Origin: Acidobacteriota bacterium
Lineage (GTDB): Bacteria; Acidobacteriota; Vicinamibacteria; Marinacidobacterales; SMYC01
Assembly: GCA_004356105.1 (NCBI GenBank)
Contig: SMYC01000060.1
Coordinates: 1,194-65,193 of the forward strand
Length of the DNA stretch: 64,000 nt
Direction of reading: 5' to 3'
Below are positions 3,245-38,851 of the stretch, one piece after another. Within the stretch, counting starts at the first letter, position 1. Each line of letters begins with the position of its first letter. The notes beneath the pieces are model-generated. The model ran no database searches. It had not been told where the DNA came from and saw only the letters and a list, made by a program, of their open reading frames with translations. Made by a program: the position numbers and the translations under genes.

Positions 3245-3520
3245 CGGCGGCACCAGTGAATACTCTCACGCAGCAAACTCATCGCTGTCAAGAGATTTCT
3301 GTTTGCTTCTAAGGGCGTGAACAAGAGCTGTCTCTCATCATTATTAATCTGGACGGGCCACCGGTCGCAAAGGCCGTGTTCCGATACGGTCGAGATGGCG
3401 CTCAGCATGTGGAGTGCGGCCGATGACCCTGGTTGACAACACAAGGACATTGGCTAAATTGGTGAGAACGAACTCCCGCTGCCTTGTTCAGAATGCGAGC
3501 GACGAGAGTTGCCAGCGCTC

Positions 3521-3930
3521 TCAGGCCGCCTCGCGCCATTCGTACCGGTGGTGCGGTCCGCCCACTCGCGGCAGTGCAACGACTCTCGCCGTTGAGGATG
3601 GCCGAGGTGTGGCATCTCTCTCGTTCGGCGTATCCTTGTGGAGCGCCAAGTGACAGCGGTCCTCGTGATAGTAGCTGATGTAAGACCGCACGAGGCGAAT
3701 GAAATGACGCTCGCTAAGGACGACTACGTGTTCGAGGAGCTCTCGACGACAGCTGCCGATCCAGCGCTCGGCTGTCCCGTTCTGCCACGGGCTCCGATAA
3801 GAAATGCGAACAGGCTTTGTGCCCATGGCCCTTATAAACTCAACCACCGCAGGCTGAATATAGAGTCGCGGTCGAAGACCAGGTATCGCGGCGCGGTGTC
3901 GTACGGAAACGCGTCACGTAGTTGCTGCAT
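3521..3930 (-). mobile_element. IS481-family (rve/DDE integrase) transposase remnant, C-terminal ~135 aa, with an internal frameshift and stop. The N-terminal catalytic region is missing.
   Basis: ORF 3521-3847 reads SPWQNGTAERW...YYHEDRCHLALHKDTP...GGPHHRYEWREAA, typical of the rve C-terminus. The upstream piece MQQLRDAFPYDTAPRYLVFDRDSIFS is in another frame and ends at a TAA. Confidence 0.6.
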
Positions 3931-27829: not shown

Positions 27830-32468
<4,639 letters not shown>

Positions 32469-32478
32469 AAGGACGTGC

Positions 32479-33192
32479 ATGTCGACATTCACTGCTGAGA
32501 TCGTAGGAACTGCGATTCTGATGCTTCTAGGCAACGGCGTGGTCGCCAACGTTCTTTTGAAAGGCACGAAAGGCGAAGGGGCGGGCTGGCTCGTTATCAC
32601 GCTCGCTTGGGGCGCGTCCGTTTTCGTCGCCGTCGCGGTCGTGGCGCCGGTGAGTGGCGCTCATATCAATCCCGCCGTCACACTGGCCTTGGCCGTAGCG
32701 GGAAAATTCGCCTGGGCGAAAGTGCCGCTCTACTGGACCGCACAAATGCTCGGCGCTGCTCTCGGAACCGCGCTCGTATGGCTCATGTACCGGCAACATT
32801 ACGCGATCACGGAAGACGGCGACGCGAAGCTCGCGACGTTTTGTACCGGCCCCGCTATCCGCAGCCCGCTCGACAATTTCGCTTCGGAAGTCATCGGAAC
32901 CTTCGTTCTCGCCTTTGCGGTTCTGATGATGGCCGCCCCAGGCGTAGGACTCGGCGCGATCGATGCACTGCCGGTCGCGATTGTCGTGCTCGTCATCGGC
33001 CTTTCGCTCGGCGGCACGACCGGCTACGCGATCAACCCCGCCCGCGATCTCGCGCCGCGGCTAATGCACGCTTTGTTGCCCATTCCGGGAAAACGCGACA
33101 GTAACTGGAGCTACGCGTGGGTGCCGGTCGCAGGCCCTCTATCGGGCGCTGTCCTCGCGGCTGTGCTGGCCCGGGCGCTCTCTTCCACCTGA
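32479..33192 (+). CDS. glpF: Aquaglyceroporin / glycerol uptake facilitator (MIP family).
   Basis: It has two NPA boxes (SGAHINPAVTLA and NPARD) and 6 transmembrane segments. Confidence 0.85.
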   Translation: MSTFTAEIVGTAILMLLGNGVVANVLLKGTKGEGAGWLVITLAWGASVFVAVAVVAPVSGAHINPAVTLALAVAGKFAWAKVPLYWTAQMLGAALGTALVWLMYRQHYAITEDGDAKLATFCTGPAIRSPLDNFASEVIGTFVLAFAVLMMAAPGVGLGAIDALPVAIVVLVIGLSLGGTTGYAINPARDLAPRLMHALLPIPGKRDSNWSYAWVPVAGPLSGAVLAAVLARALSST

Positions 33193-33202
33193 CACTTTTA
33201 GA

Positions 33203-33730
33203 TTAAACGTCTGATTTGAAGCCGATTCTCTGTTTAGATTTTGAAGCGGGCTTCATGAGCTCGCGAATGGCGTCGAAGACCACCCTGAACTGGACGTCAT
33301 ACGCCTTCTCAAGGGCGGCCAGCTTTTGGGCAAGTTCTCCATGGGAAACCAAGAACCCTCTAAGTCGGACGAATGTCCGCATGATCTCGATGTTGACGAG
33401 GACGGCGCGCTTGCTATCGAGCACGGAGGACAACATTGCTACACCTTGCTCCGTAAAGACGTAAGGGGGATAGCGGCGGCCGCCCCACGATCTTGAGGTC
33501 ACAGTTTGTGACCTCAAGAAGATCCACTCCTCACGACCCAACTGGAAAGCAAAGTCGTGGGGGAAGTGATCCAGATTCCGCTTGAAGGCTTGGTTGAGTG
33601 CTTTCGTCGGAACTTCGTAGAGCTCGGCCAAGTCCTCATCCAGCAAAACGTTCTGGCCCCTGATGAAGTAAATACGATTCTCGATCAACTGCGGCGGAAC
33701 GACGAGGGCGGTAGTTTTCTTCTTGGGCAT
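33203..33730 (-). CDS. ORF6N-domain DNA-binding protein (phage anti-repressor-like).
   Basis: The segment [49 protein letters not shown] is a typical ORF6N domain. The start is taken as ATG 33730 (MPKKKTT). Confidence 0.65.
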
Positions 33731-34307
33731 GTAATCCTTGACGGGGTTTGAGGACAACAATTTCCAGTTTCATTTTGGTGGACTGTTTTCTATGGGAGGA
33801 TTTCCTCGACGACTGTTTTAGATCACCTCTTGGTTTTCGCTGACACCGACATAGACCCTCGCCGGTTCTCGTGCCGGTTTGGCAGTCTTCGAGTCATCTC
33901 GTGGGCTTGTTACAAGTGAAGTATCGACAACCCGCGTCGTGCTGTTTGCTACTTGCCAGATCTCGAAAATTTCTTCCGACAAGCACTCTCGTATATAACG
34001 ACGAGAACCGCAGACTCAGTCCTCCCTCAGAGGTGCACAAATTTCGCCATCGGATGGGTTTCGACGACCCACCGAGAACACTCATCGAAGCCAAAATGGC
34101 CGCGTACTGCGTGACGGGCGGAGCCCACGAAGACGTCGCGACCGTCATCCTCGACGAGTACGAAGAACTCGAGCAGATGATGTACCCTGCCGGACCGCAC
34201 GCAACGCGGCCCTCGCTCGTCAAGTTTATCCGTGACGAAAGCGGCGCCGTGACTTGGGTCCGGGAACGGGCGCAACGCGCGGAAGGAGGGGCGCTAGCGA
34301 GCCGTAA

Positions 34308-35420
34308 CTATTGGACGCGACCGCCCGCGCTGGAATCTGTCGCGCGATCCAGAGCGGCGTCCGCGGCGCTCAGCACGAGCACAGCAAACGCAGTTGCCGC
34401 GTCGGAAGCCAAGAGACGGGTAAACGCTTCTTCCTTGCTCCGATCCTTGTTCGGAGACAGCGTCTCCCAGCGCCCATCGGCTTCCTGATTCTGCTGAAGC
34501 CACGACACGCCACGCGCGATAGCGGTCGCGTAACGCGCCTCGTCGAGCTGCTGCAAGACGAAAGTGGAAAACGCCGTCGCATAGCCGTCGCTCTCTTGAT
34601 GAGGCGCCGAACCGTCCTTCGAAGGCCAAGGCGCTAAATCCACGAGTCGAAAGCCGCCATCGGCACGTTGCTGCTCGAGAACCTCGCCCGCGAGCCGTGA
34701 CACCTCGGACTCCGACAAAAGACCATCCCACGCGCTCGCCGCCCAAAGAAGCGAAAGGCGGTTGTGAAGATTCGTTTCCCCCGAGAGCCCGCCGCGTAGA
34801 TAACGGCGAAGCCGCGCGAGCCCGTCTGCCGGAGGCGTCACTTCCTCCCGCTGCGCCATGGCCGCCACTATCGCCAAAGAAGCGCCCCAGAACTCGCTAC
34901 CATCCGACTCCCATGGTGCGAGCCCGAAATGAAGCCACGACCACTTGCCGTCGTCCTTCTGCTCCGCCCACATATGCGCCAGCGCCAGCTTCGCCTCACC
35001 GCTCAACGCCCCAGGCGCGCGCTGATCCCGGAGCGAGAGCACTAATGCATTGAGCACGGACTCCGTCCCACGCGACTGATCCGGCTTCTCCGCACCGCGA
35101 GAAGCCTCGTACCAGACCCGCGCATCCTTCCAACCTGTAACCCGCGCTTCCACATCCGCGAAGAACTCGAGCGCGGGGTCCGGGAGCGAGTCGTCGATCG
35201 AAGCACGTGAAATAAGGTACGGCATCCCGGTGTGACAGGACACGCACGCATGCTCCAGCTTCTGCCGAGGCCGTGAGCGCTCCATCCAGAGCGAGGCGCG
35301 TTCATCCAGGTATCGCGCCGCGGCGACACGGTCCCAATTTTCCTCTGCGGCGACGGCGGACGACAGCGACACCGTGGAAAGAAGAAGGACAGCTGAAAGA
35401 CTCAAACGCATCCGAGACAT
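34308..35420 (-). CDS. Secreted protein with a CxxCH haem-binding motif and prenyltransferase / squalene-cyclase-like alpha-alpha toroid repeats.
   Basis: It has a signal peptide, CVSCH, and repeated QxxxDG(G/K/R)W motifs (EQKDDGKWSW, EQQRADGGFRL, QNQEADGRWETL). Confidence 0.55.
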   Translation of the reverse strand: MSRMRLSLSAVLLLSTVSLSSAVAAEENWDRVAAARYLDERASLWMERSRPRQKLEHACVSCHTGMPYLISRASIDDSLPDPALEFFADVEARVTGWKDARVWYEASRGAEKPDQSRGTESVLNALVLSLRDQRAPGALSGEAKLALAHMWAEQKDDGKWSWLHFGLAPWESDGSEFWGASLAIVAAMAQREEVTPPADGLARLRRYLRGGLSGETNLHNRLSLLWAASAWDGLLSESEVSRLAGEVLEQQRADGGFRLVDLAPWPSKDGSAPHQESDGYATAFSTFVLQQLDEARYATAIARGVSWLQQNQEADGRWETLSPNKDRSKEEAFTRLLASDAATAFAVLVLSAADAALDRATDSSAGGRVQ

Positions 35421-35532
35421 TGTAGAGAAACTAGCACGCTGGGCGAGGGGCTACAACCCTCGAACCCTCGGCTCGGAAAGATGGTCGAACAAGGGATCCG
35501 GTGCCCGGCTGAGAGTTAGCTGCGGGGGGGGA

Positions 35533-35870
35533 TCACGGACGGAAGGCAGGCGACGGCTCAATCGTCGTCGGATTTGACTTCATGAACTGGGAGTCGTAGT
35601 TGCGCTCCATGGCGGTGATCTTCCGGGCGAGCTCTTCGTAGCTTACGATCCACTGCCTCAGTCGCACGAAGGTTCGCATGATGGCGATATTCACCTGGAC
35701 AGCCCGCTCGCTTCGAAGAACGCTGGAAAGCATCAAGATTCCATGCTCCGTAAAAGCGCGGGGATGATACTTCCGATGAACATGAAATCCTCGGGGAATC
35801 GATTGATGTTCCGGACTAGGACTTCGCCGGCGAGCTGGTAAGCGGCCTTCAACATCGTCTTCCTCGGGGG
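35533..35870 (-). pseudogene. Second ORF6N-domain gene copy, frameshifted.
   Basis: ORF 35533-35736 ([28 protein letters not shown]...) is paralogous to the C-terminus of 33203-33730. The N-terminal part ([27 protein letters not shown]) is in another frame. Confidence 0.5.
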
Positions 35871-35904
35871 AGCCCCCTTTGAGTGAGTAGGAGACCGTGG
35901 AGTG

Positions 35905-36666
35905 TCAGTCCTTGCGTGCGAGCCAGATTTGGTGGGTGGAGCTGGCCTCTAGCGGACGCCCTTCGAAATCGCCAAAGACATCTTCAATCACGAACCCGGT
36001 CTCTTGCAGAAGTTTGCGGCTCTGCTCCGGAGTGAGCCACGAAAGGCGGATGCGCCGGTATCGGCGGCTCGTCACGACCCCTTGCGGGTCGAGCTCGTCT
36101 GTCCAGACGAGGATGTCGAGAACTTGATTCTCGATATCGCGCGTCGTTGCTTCCCACAGAATCCAGTCGGGACGGCTGGCACGCAGGTGGGGCACGCCCG
36201 ATTCTTGCGGGTAGTCAGGATCGAAGATGAAATGGTCGAAGATGAAATAGCCCCCTGACCGCAGCTGCCCGCGGATGGTCTCGAGCGCCCGGCGCTTGTC
36301 CTCTTCCTTTATTAGATGACCGATGCTGTGGAAGGGGATCGTGATGAGCGCGGCGGGCTCGGGAAGCTCGAAATCACGAAAATCGGCTTTAATGAGCGTC
36401 AAGCGGTCGAGGACGCCAGCGGCGCGCGCCCGTGTCTCACAGAGCTCGAGTATTTTCTCGGAAGAGTCGACGCCGATGACGGCTTTGCCTCGCTTGGCCG
36501 CTTCGATACAAATGCGCCCATTGCCGACGCCGAGCTCGACCGCGGGCCCGTCCGCTTCCACGAGGCACTTTACGTAGAATTCCTGATTTTCGCGGGTGAC
36601 GGGAGCGCTCTCAGCCCAGGCGTCGTAGATGTCGGCGAAAGCGTCGTACGGCACAGCAGCGGTCAT
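35905..36666 (-). CDS. Class I SAM-dependent methyltransferase.
   Basis: Motif I is VELGVGNGR and motif II is LIKADF. ATG 36666 (MTAAVPYD) is chosen as the start to avoid overlapping the divergent fadB-like start. Confidence 0.75.
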   Translation of the reverse strand: MTAAVPYDAFADIYDAWAESAPVTRENQEFYVKCLVEADGPAVELGVGNGRICIEAAKRGKAVIGVDSSEKILELCETRARAAGVLDRLTLIKADFRDFELPEPAALITIPFHSIGHLIKEEDKRRALETIRGQLRSGGYFIFDHFIFDPDYPQESGVPHLRASRPDWILWEATTRDIENQVLDILVWTDELDPQGVVTSRRYRRIRLSWLTPEQSRKLLQETGFVIEDVFGDFEGRPLEASSTHQIWLARKD

Positions 36667-36751
36667 TTTTCTTCTAACGTTGCTCGCCAAGCTCTGATAA
36701 AGTTGCGAGCCCTCGGCAAGCGGTTTCAAAAGAGTATCAGATGGAGGTCTC

Positions 36752-38851
36752 ATGAGCAGCGTGGTCGAAGTGACTCAGGACGGGTCGGTGCGCGTCCTAT
36801 CTATCGACAACCCTCCCGTGAATGGGCTCGGCGCCGCCGTGCGGTCGGCTCTCGCCGAAGAGCTCACGAAAGCTCTCCAAGATGAAGGTGTCGAGGCCAT
36901 TGTTCTCGCGGGAAAAGGAAAGTTTTTTTGCGCTGGAGCCGACATCCGGGAGTTTGGCAAGGAGCCACCTCCCGACACACCGCATCTCCCCGACGTCATC
37001 GACGCGCTCGAAGCTTCGACGAAGCCCGTCGTCGCCGCGATCCAAGGTGTCGCCGCCGGCGGCGGGCTCGAGCTTGCGCTCGGCTGTCACGGACGCGTGG
37101 CCACGGCCGACGCACGTGTTGGCCTTCCCGAAGTCACGCTCGGCATCATCCCGGGTGCGGGCGGCACACAGCGTTTGCCGCGGCTCATTGGCGTTGCAGC
37201 CGCGCTCGACATCATTGTCGCCGGGAAGCTCGTGCCCGCTCCGAAAGCCGAGAAGCTCGGCTATGTGGACCAAGTCGTTACCAATAACGCCAACGTCATC
37301 GACGCCGCCAAAGACTACGCGCGAGCCATCGTCGCAGGAGACAAACCTTTCCGCCGGGCCTCCGAAGGGACCGTCGAAGCGGAGGCCACCGTCTTCGACG
37401 ACGTGAAAACGCGCATCGCGAAAAAGGCGCGCGGCTTCGAAGCACCCTACGCGGCCATCGACGCGGTGCGCGCTTCGGTCGAGCTTCCAATCAAAGAAGG
37501 TTTCGCCCGCGAGCGCGAGATCTTTGTCGGCCTCGTTGATTCCGTTCAGGCCCAAGCGCAACGGCACGTCTTTTTTGCCGAGCGCGCGATCGCAAAGATT
37601 CCCGACGTTCCGAAGGACACGCCGGCGAAAGAGATCCGCCGTGTCGGTGTTGTCGGCTGTGGCACGATGGGAGGGGGTATCGCGATGAGCTTCGTGAATG
37701 CCGGTTTCCCAGTGAGCGTTCTCGAAAGCAACGAGGAGTACCTCGATCGCGGCCTCGAGAAGATCCGTGGACTCTATGCTTCGAGCGTCTCGAAAGGCCG
37801 CCTGTCGCAAGAGGACATGGACCAACGGATGGGACGTCTTCAAGGAACGCTCGAAGCTTCCGAGCTCGCGGACGCGGACCTCGTCGTCGAAGCCGTCTTC
37901 GAAGAGATGGACGTCAAGAAAGACATCTTCCGCCGCCTCGACGAAATCTGCAAAGACGACACCATCCTCGCGACGAACACGTCGACGCTCGACGTCAACG
38001 AGATCGCCAACGCGACCAAGCGCCCCGAGCTCGTCATCGGCACGCATTTCTTCAGCCCGGCGAACATCATGAAGCTGATGGAGAACGTGCGCGGCGAGAA
38101 GACGTCGAAAGAGACCATCGCGACGATCATGAAGCTCTCGAAGCAACTCGGGAAAGTCGGTGTGCTCGTCGGTGTATGCGACGGCTTCGTCGGCAACCGC
38201 ATGCTTTATGCCTATCGCCAGCAGGCGGATTTCCTTCTCGAAGAAGGCGCGCTTCCACGGCAAGTCGACAAAGCGCTCTTCGACTTCGGTCTTCCGATGG
38301 GCCCGTTCGCGATGATGGATCTCGCGGGGCTCGATATCGGCTGGGCCATCCGCAAACGGCAAGCACCAACGCGGCCGAAAGAGCTGCGCTACTCCCCCAT
38401 TCCGGACCGCATCTGCGAAATGGGCCGCTTCGGCCAAAAGACAGGCGCGGGCTGGTATCGCTACGAAGAAGGCAGCCGCACCCCCGTCCCCGACCCCGAG
38501 ATCGAAGCGCTCGTTGTCGAGGTCTCGAAAGAGCTCGGCTTCGAGCGGCGCGAAATCAGCGACGAGGAGATCGTCGAGCGCTGCATGTTCCCGCTCATCA
38601 ACGAGGGCGCGAAGATACTCGAAGAAGGGATAGCTCTTCGGCCGGGTGATATCGATATCGTATGGATCTACGGCTATGGTTTTCCGCGCTATCGCGGCGG
38701 GCCGATGTTCTACGCGGACACGGTGGGCATCGACAAGATTCACGAGACGATGGTGCGCCTCTATAAAGAACAAGGTGAGTGGATGAAGCCCGCGCCTCTC
38801 CTTACGCAGCTCGCCAAAGAAGGCAAAAGCTTCAAGGATTACGCGTCATAG
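36752..38851 (+). CDS. fadB: Fatty-acid oxidation multifunctional protein (enoyl-CoA hydratase / 3-hydroxyacyl-CoA dehydrogenase, FadB/FadJ-like).
   Basis: It has an N-terminal crotonase fold (FCAGADI), a central NAD-binding GxGxxG (VGVVGCGTMGGGIA), and a C-terminal 3HCDH domain. The protein is 699 aa. Confidence 0.85.
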   Translation: MSSVVEVTQDGSVRVLSIDNPPVNGLGAAVRSALAEELTKALQDEGVEAIVLAGKGKFFCAGADIREFGKEPPPDTPHLPDVIDALEASTKPVVAAIQGVAAGGGLELALGCHGRVATADARVGLPEVTLGIIPGAGGTQRLPRLIGVAAALDIIVAGKLVPAPKAEKLGYVDQVVTNNANVIDAAKDYARAIVAGDKPFRRASEGTVEAEATVFDDVKTRIAKKARGFEAPYAAIDAVRASVELPIKEGFAREREIFVGLVDSVQAQAQRHVFFAERAIAKIPDVPKDTPAKEIRRVGVVGCGTMGGGIAMSFVNAGFPVSVLESNEEYLDRGLEKIRGLYASSVSKGRLSQEDMDQRMGRLQGTLEASELADADLVVEAVFEEMDVKKDIFRRLDEICKDDTILATNTSTLDVNEIANATKRPELVIGTHFFSPANIMKLMENVRGEKTSKETIATIMKLSKQLGKVGVLVGVCDGFVGNRMLYAYRQQADFLLEEGALPRQVDKALFDFGLPMGPFAMMDLAGLDIGWAIRKRQAPTRPKELRYSPIPDRICEMGRFGQKTGAGWYRYEEGSRTPVPDPEIEALVVEVSKELGFERREISDEEIVERCMFPLINEGAKILEEGIALRPGDIDIVWIYGYGFPRYRGGPMFYADTVGIDKIHETMVRLYKEQGEWMKPAPLLTQLAKEGKSFKDYAS

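Follow-up and report, generated by a model that had tools for sequence, protein, structure and literature searches.

An (alpha/alpha)6 toroid with QW-type repeats is the fold of the class II terpene cyclases (squalene-hopene cyclase; single-domain bacterial enzymes such as PDB 8paj/8pak and MstE 6sbb), and covalently bound haem of the c type, attached at CXXCH in the periplasm, is found in cytochromes with a small helical fold. Genes of the ORF6N type are known from phages and mobile elements, and the PADLOC collection includes related proteins as the single-gene candidate defence system PDC-S05. According to a preprint (10.1101/2024.09.26.614923), T7 and T5 plated about 1000-fold less efficiently on Escherichia coli carrying a PDC-S05 representative with a RhuM domain, the only assayed member that was found; in E. 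coli B, protection is reported against T7, T5 and T4. Here, we describe a locus in a 64,000-nucleotide stretch of contig SMYC01000060.1 (assembly GCA_004356105.1, Acidobacteriota bacterium, Marinacidobacterales), hereafter called the window, in which a gene for a toroid protein with a c-type haem motif lies between two ORF6N sequences. A preliminary description, made from the letters alone, had taken the three genes for a mobile mini-island with the toroid gene as its cargo. The best overall explanation, which we consider likely, is a resident, vertically inherited toroid gene with a haem c motif beside unrelated and decaying ORF6N imports. Few bacteria are as abundant in soil as the Acidobacteriota, yet their biochemistry is poorly understood.

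A haem c motif in a family of toroid proteins

The N-terminus of the toroid protein, MSRMRLSLSAVLLLSTVSLSSAVA followed by AE, is signal-peptide-like (AVA/AE after residue 24), and the single CVSCH attributed to it from the outset occupies residues 59-63. C59 and C62 are the only cysteines of the protein, and among the open reading frames (ORFs) of 150 codons or more in all frames of the window, its gene is the sole one to contain CxxCH. The three toroid repeats first described are present as QKDDGKW, QRADGGF and QEADGRW, but the motif they share is QxxDGx(W/F), one residue shorter than originally given. Structure prediction bore out the proposed fold. The AlphaFold2 model (pLDDT 89.5, pTM 0.89) has twelve main helices and Foldseek matches agree with a toroid at a TM score of about 0.5, and thus we assign the protein to the generic (alpha/alpha)6 toroids with QW-like repeats. 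In this model, the loop that joins helix 1 (residues 31-52) to helix 2 (65-74) contains CxxCH, and the motif belongs to the toroid itself and not to a separate cytochrome domain. The Pfam match to a cyclase repeat is borderline (26.2 versus 26.1 bits) and covers residues 280-358 only, about 80 residues, and no NCBIfam model came close to its cut-off. No haem protein was among the listed structural matches, and a PDB sequence search detected no solved-structure relative of the N-terminal 108 residues, which comprise the haem region.

A profile search of 1.84 billion cluster representatives (clusters at 50% identity) returned 3862 family members at E<=1e-3, 1562 at E<=1e-10 and 585 at E<=1e-30. 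The family occurs in at least 562 species genomes, one genome per species having been scanned. Its hosts are mostly Acidobacteriota (Terriglobia, Bryobacterales, Vicinamibacterales, and Marinacidobacterales), with a few Gemmatimonadota and one member of Limnocylindrales. All 35 aligned homologues (alignment A1), down to 38% identity, have the same residues at C59, S61, C62, H63, and T64, and the N-terminus is hydrophobic in every aligned member. Among 116 listed representatives of at least 320 amino acids, 96 carry CX2CH and 19 carry CX3CH, the latter as CA(L/M)SCHT at the same aligned place. One or the other motif is thus found in 115/116 full-length representatives, and the one exception has a garbled N-terminus. 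The proteins with CX3CH (P0300, P0309, P0314, and 16 others) form a subclade; CX3CH is a tolerated variant of the haem c site. Across 99 diverse members, Y68, Y104, Y280, R41, R93, E120, E171, and D340 are highly conserved. Fusions within the family join the toroid to a class I cytochrome c (P0297), a cytochrome P460 (P0346), or a BD-FAE esterase (P0269), and one protein is a triple tandem (P0242).

The preliminary description suggested a haem-bearing toroid and allowed that the protein might instead be a standard toroid with an incidental CxxCH. Since the motif defines the family and nearly all members carry it, it is not incidental, and together with the toroid model it supports the former idea as far as can be judged from sequence. 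We consider it quite likely that the toroid protein binds haem, and any particular activity much less so. A description of the toroid family was found neither in Pfam or NCBIfam nor among solved structures or papers, and a literature search for haem or cytochrome c proteins with a toroid or cyclase fold yielded nothing relevant. Source annotations of members read "hypothetical protein" or, wrongly, "squalene-hopene/tetraprenyl-beta-curcumene cyclase". Moreover, the gene calls in L004, L005, and L006 (8466-9401, equivalent to window positions 34308-35243), on DNA identical to that of the window, start at GTG codon 60 and give 311 amino acids, so that CVSCH loses its first cysteine and the protein its signal peptide. 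Truncated automatic calls like those in these three metagenome assemblies would hide the haem motif in protein databases.

In the mechanism that we propose, the toroid protein would be exported via its Sec signal peptide, and a cytochrome c maturation system would couple a single haem covalently to C59 and C62, H63 acting as proximal ligand. The lineage appears able to mature c-type cytochromes, because a relative (L001) codes for a nine-CxxCH cytochrome at the same locus. From predicted export and haem attachment to a motif in a toroid loop, it follows that the protein is most likely a periplasmic mono-haem redox protein. The ring would provide either a docking surface or a pocket for a substrate or ligand, with electrons passing to or from soluble cytochromes. 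The fusions point to a redox protein exchanging electrons with soluble cytochromes, perhaps an enzyme rather than a simple carrier.

A resident gene between variable spacers

The features of the locus are given in Table 1. Contigs L004-L007 represent the same strain as the window (99.8-99.97% identity), and more distant relatives were used to address the island question. The closest named genomes are "Acidobacteria bacterium bin61" (L010) and Candidatus Marinacidobacterales (L011, a 10.2-Mb chromosome). In L010, whose toroid protein is 91% identical, the toroid gene abuts glpF and window positions 33203-34298 are exactly absent. It is followed by glpF, likewise without ORF6N, after 15 bp in L011 (86% identical protein), 26 bp in L012 (79%), and 50 bp in L001 and about 15-22 bp in L002 (87% for L001/L002). 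The orientation of the toroid gene beside glpF is the same in all of these relatives, and for L010, L001, and L012 its position on the methyltransferase side was verified as well. At the nucleotide level, the toroid gene is 82-90% identical to its ORF6N-free counterparts, slightly under the flanks (87-96%), and dN/dS against five relatives is 0.20-0.27. Because of the shared orientation beside glpF, the flank-like identity, and the low dN/dS, we regard the toroid gene as a resident and constrained gene.

Table 1. Annotated features of the toroid gene locus (window positions)
Feature	Positions	Strand	Basis and remarks
MIP-family channel gene, GlpF-like (glpF)	32479..33192	+	Pfam PF00230 E 3e-44; syntenic in all relatives; convergent with ORF6N and toroid gene
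Intact stand-alone ORF6N gene	33203..33730	-	175 aa from ATG 33730; Pfam PF10543, PHROG and PADLOC matches
Lineage-specific segment, 1096 bp (ORF6N plus 568 bp of orphan sequence)	33203..34298		Between convergent 3' ends of glpF and toroid gene; blastn and alignments
Perfect palindrome inside ORF6N gene	33491..33519		13-nt arms, 3-nt loop; codons for LRSQTVTSR
Doubtful "ORF-X"	34048..34488	+	Divergent from ORF6N, antisense into toroid gene
Toroid gene, predicted 370-aa exported protein	34308..35420	-	Signal peptide residues 1-24, haem c motif, 12-helix (alpha/alpha)6 toroid
C59-V-S-C62-H63 codons, putative covalent haem attachment site and proximal histidine	35232..35246	-	Motif conservation in family
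Non-syntenic spacer, 411 bp, toroid gene to methyltransferase gene	35493..35903		Comparison with relatives
ORF6N pseudogene	35584..35855	-	tblastn pieces in frames -3 and -2; Pfam fragment E 0.034
Class I SAM-dependent methyltransferase gene	35905..36753	-	Pfam Methyltransf_25 E 2.4e-14; syntenic in L001, L010, L093

The spacer between methyltransferase and toroid gene has held at least three different small genes across relatives. L010 has a 343-bp spacer with the remnant of a DUF2283 gene at this place. This small gene (E 2.9e-5) was detected in L010 at 3383-3725, with a stop inside, and in L093 at 2073-2342. In L001, window positions 35493-35879 are replaced by a 6.5-kb block (L001 3466-9936), coding for a 957-amino-acid nine-CxxCH cytochrome (c7/c3-type; Pfam c7/c3/Paired_CXXCH) fused to TPR repeats, a 318-amino-acid Ig-like/DUF4397 protein, and two ORFs without assignment. 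In L012, the toroid gene abuts a truncated methyltransferase gene on this side. In L003, the upstream spacer contains at 274-321 a 48-nt copy of the toroid-gene interior (window 34785-34832; 87.5% identity), a trace of local rearrangement.

As first noticed, two ORF6N-type sequences on the same strand stand on either side of the toroid gene (33203-33730/33760 and 35584-35855, both minus), and GC content drops to 0.50-0.53 over 33200-34000, compared with 0.60-0.65 around. The intact gene could start at its first TTG (33760; 185 amino acids) or at ATG 33730 (175 amino acids), the start called in the four metagenome assemblies L004-L007 and, in our view, the more likely one. Its product matches Pfam PF10543 over model positions 1-86 of 86 (E 2.5e-34, 117.9 bits, cut-off 27.8), the PHROGs "anti-repressor" family (E 3e-24), and the PADLOC PDC-S05 models PDLC04869 (E 8.5e-54) and PDLC04856 (E 8.2e-53, profile positions 7-174 of 177). 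A PDB sequence search with this protein found nothing. The second copy, for which Pfam reports a 14.9-bit fragment only, is frameshifted as described before, but the damage goes further: the first approximately 41 codons are gone, a 64-nt internal deletion (residues 73-94) shifts the frame, and the sequence has diverged after residue 158. tblastn recovers residues 61-72 in one frame and 95-158 in another. The two copies do have the reported peptide in common, and their amino acid identity is 64% over residues 95-158 (E 5e-22). With 73% DNA identity over 99 nt, the two copies are, judged by their sequences, old paralogues.

Among 89 loci, ORF6N adjoins the toroid gene in the strain of the window (L004-L007) and L003 alone; L092 and L093, found in addition, bring these loci to seven. 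In these sister strains, the gene is eroded to differing extents. L092 and L093, with a 97% identical ORF6N, have lost 317 bp (33653-33969), including the ORF6N 5' end, and L093 also has no stop codon. L003, with a 97% identical toroid protein, has kept the last 60 nt of ORF6N alone, joined by a 963-bp deletion to about 80 nt after the toroid gene. Upstream of its toroid gene, L003 has the 3' end of another ORF6N, which is 85% identical at the nucleotide level to the intact copy of the window and not to its pseudogene; for possible orthology of this L003 end with the pseudogene, the local DNA alignment scores 36, inside the shuffled range (maximum 42).

ORF6N homologues number at least 8000 proteins at E<=1e-10; sampled ones are 61-70% identical, and named hosts include Peregrinibacteria, Pirellulales, Myxococcota, and Nitrospirota. 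The assignment of ORF6N to the genes typical of mobile elements, made in the preliminary description, is borne out by the anti-repressor match and by the two nearest non-orthologous homologues (83-84% identical), which lie beside fragmented tyrosine-integrase genes (L090) and beside transposase fragments and YD-repeat toxin cassettes (L091). The history of the locus is that of a toroid gene of a marine or soil acidobacterium, vertically inherited and under purifying selection between a methyltransferase gene and glpF-glpD, where this sub-lineage acquired two different stand-alone ORF6N genes in the flanking spacers, one intact and one wrecked, and sister strains deleted the same genes in part. 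The ORF6N genes appear to be dispensable horizontal imports of the mobile-element or candidate anti-phage type, coding for a small DNA-binding protein and functionally unrelated to the gene they flank.

Further observations concern the surroundings. The small gene proposed at 34048-34310 does exist as an ORF from ATG 34048, but it runs to 34488, antisense into the toroid gene. This ORF-X has no Pfam, PHROG, or PADLOC match, its tblastn match to plasmids has an E value of 1 only, and its sole homologue among 5.8 billion proteins comes from the same locus. We therefore reject it as probably non-coding, an in-frame 39-nt indel in L092/L093 being the sole hint of coding. In glpD (30924-32468), the glycerol-3-phosphate dehydrogenase gene, a 992-bp stretch (31407-32398) is absent from L010 and L092, with a 10-nt overlap at the junction, and L001 has the gene called as two ORFs. 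The gene is intact in the window and seems to be decaying in several relatives. The methyltransferase (35905-36753) weakly matches the NCBIfam model of a daptide RiPP methyltransferase (75 versus a cut-off of 175 bits) and PADLOC mad2 (E 1e-17). A role as part of a defence system was rejected, since these matches probably reflect generic SAM-domain similarity well under the cut-off and the gene is syntenic in relatives. In an Rfam scan (32500-36500, E<=1), the sole match was to a snoRNA and due to chance, and a promoter and terminator scan gave nothing exceeding the shuffled expectation.

A covarying palindrome in ORF6N genes

The palindrome in the intact ORF6N gene is present in a single copy in the window, where none is expected by chance, and the 64-nt deletion in the pseudogene takes out exactly this stretch. 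Its exact 11+3+11 core was found on at least 120 contigs from metagenomes and 18 from viruses (survey loci L094-L311). Of 144 occurrences, 99 are inside ORF6N genes with products just 42-72% identical, and 24 are beside an ORF6N gene, about 20 of these upstream and most by 20-211 nt; the remaining 21 are at loci without an ORF6N match. Some loci have a second, related palindrome 270-440 nt upstream.

To obtain a set unbiased for the palindrome, 80 viral ORF6N genes were picked by peptide patterns in other parts of the protein. In 22/25 distinct sequences of this set, 8 or more of the 11 pairs at the palindrome position are complementary. Compensatory changes alter the protein, giving LRSQSVTSS, LKCQFGISR, LMSQNATSS, LTSQIVMSS, LKSQIGISS, or LRCQIGTSK. 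In total, 90.2% of cells are paired, versus 20-44% in slid registers, and changes on both sides occur in 8/11 pairs. The covariation score of 0.33 (versus 0.115 in shuffles) was reached by 0/500 shuffles, and resampling of synonymous codons for the same peptides yields 4.5-6.5 pairs of 11, versus 9.8 observed. In the ORF6N model, the encoded residues are at the end of a helix and in a loop of low confidence.

No matching family was found in Rfam. One possibility is an operator bound by a dimeric protein, perhaps ORF6N, and present both at promoters and inside genes by analogy with lac O2 or gal OI; operator half-sites would covary too. Alternatively, the element may be a hairpin in RNA or single-stranded DNA. 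We regard the palindrome as a lead separate from the toroid protein, of interest since ORF6N is a very common yet unstudied gene type, reported to protect against phages. It is tempting to combine both leads, although we hold the combination to be doubtful: the toroid family, widespread in Acidobacteriota and Gemmatimonadota of soils and the sea and linked in some members to cytochrome c, cytochrome P460, or esterase domains, would be an unrecognised class of periplasmic haem c enzymes, in which the terpene-cyclase-like ring would receive a hydrophobic substrate or a glycan beside a covalent haem with an open or exchangeable sixth position, and the ORF6N genes would carry a structure-selected intragenic nucleic-acid element, which may be central to the regulation or movement of a widespread candidate defence gene.

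Alternative readings and known systems

Two co-oriented ORF6N paralogues 1.77 kb apart, the lower GC around the intact copy, and the usual occurrence of ORF6N in mobile elements had suggested that the 1.7 kb between the copies is an insert and that the toroid gene is cargo, bracketed and carried by the two ORF6N genes. The comparison with relatives, which the preliminary description had itself proposed, overturned this view. The toroid gene is syntenic and at the same site without ORF6N in L010, L011, L012, and L001/L002, and presence/absence variation sits in the two ORF6N-bearing spacers, not between them. The low-GC stretch is confined to the ORF6N segment, the limited DNA identity of the two copies speaks against a matching pair, and ORF6N was found beside none of 80 other members of the toroid family. 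Terminal repeats, long direct or inverted repeats, and target duplications were not found around either ORF6N segment, the junction mapped against L010 shows a 2-nt overlap only, the window contains no tRNA gene, and no integrase gene was seen in the annotated locus. A mobile island with the toroid gene as cargo is, hence, highly improbable. For genome scanning, the lesson is that paired genes of the mobile-element type do not prove an island; here, the relatives reversed which part is the "cargo". Slightly more can be said for both ORF6N sequences being remnants of one larger integrated element, a prophage or integrative element eroded around a pre-existing gene, given the integrase and transposase fragments next to close ORF6N homologues, the indel hotspots in both spacers, and the third arrangement in L003 with its upstream ORF6N end. 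The toroid gene is orthologous to that of ORF6N-free relatives and undisturbed between the same neighbours, and therefore one element would need to have inserted on both sides without disturbing it. Neither spacer contains another element gene, ORF-X having no homologues elsewhere, and we consider this scenario unlikely. The predicted DNA binding of the intact ORF6N protein and the place of its gene, 547 bp downstream of the toroid gene and in the same orientation, might suggest a local transcription regulator of the toroid gene or glpF. However, ORF6N is absent in most relatives keeping both neighbours and is decaying in sister strains, and its palindrome occurs in the window solely inside its own gene; such regulation has very little to recommend it.

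For the motif of the toroid protein, a zinc or iron site or a thiol-disulfide site in place of a haem site is a conceivable alternative. Zinc is bound in the same fold by Cys/Cys/His in LanC-type cyclases and by Asp/Cys/His in prenyltransferase beta subunits. In the toroid family, however, the histidine always directly follows the second cysteine and is itself mostly followed by threonine (CxSCHT), which is the classic haem c signature, and the CX3CH form is itself a haem c variant. All members look exported, and cytochrome c or cytochrome P460 domains occur as fusion partners in relatives. According to PMC3601427, a periplasmic CxxCH is a substrate for maturation systems, which have few other requirements. 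We thus think it rather unlikely that the conserved cysteines and histidine form a metal or thiol site.

Several observations weigh against a resident haem c protein beside unrelated ORF6N imports, the reading that we favour. Across the 99 diverse members, neither an invariant methionine nor a second invariant histidine is available as sixth haem ligand; position 338 is methionine in 73% of members and alanine in the clade of the window. The gene neighbourhood is not conserved, with the best neighbour in 11/80 loci; the commonest neighbours, of which none gives a usable hint to function, are a Ser/Thr kinase-TPR protein, a TonB-type outer-membrane protein, and a PQQ quinohaemoprotein dehydrogenase. 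The WWD-motif synthase of cytochrome c maturation was not found within the window, a result uninformative either way. For ORF6N, a Pfam scan did not match the window protein to the RhuM domain of the phage-protective PDC-S05 representative. Furthermore, two copies at one small locus are odd if independently acquired, all the more as L003 has yet another one upstream, and local targeting or rearrangement may be behind the repeated arrivals.

Among known systems, ORF6N/KilA-N-type DNA-binding proteins of phages and mobile elements and PADLOC PDC-S05 proteins are close counterparts of the intact ORF6N protein, which matches the full Pfam ORF6N model, the PHROG anti-repressors, and the PDC-S05 models nearly end to end. 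The difference is that the gene here is solitary, in a spacer between chromosomal genes that belongs to neither a phage nor a defence island. The toroid protein differs from the thioester domain of alpha-2-macroglobulin and complement C3/C4/C5 in having no CxEQ (no C.EQ) and in standing alone rather than being embedded in a macroglobulin. The alpha-domain of transcobalamin and intrinsic factor, to which it has no sequence relationship, binds cobalamin non-covalently between two domains, whereas attachment to the toroid protein would be covalent via CxxCH. Compared with the class II terpene cyclases, it does not possess the catalytic, proton-donating DxDD motif (no D.DD anywhere) and reaches 16-19 bits with NCBIfam cyclase models that have cut-offs of 323-851; conversely, no cyclase has a haem c motif, and the toroid protein is predicted to be periplasmic. 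It resembles none of the cytochrome c families in Pfam, NCBIfam, or PDB, its scaffold is a 340-residue toroid instead of a small helical fold, and it lacks an invariant sixth ligand. What it shares with c-type cytochromes is the signal peptide, a strictly conserved CX2-3CH formed from its sole cysteines, and relatives fused to cytochrome domains. The ORF6N imports are ordinary, and the novelty of the locus is a c-type haem motif on a terpene-cyclase-like scaffold, which, if haem is indeed carried there, would add one more fold to the short list of those carrying covalent haem and point to new periplasmic redox chemistry.

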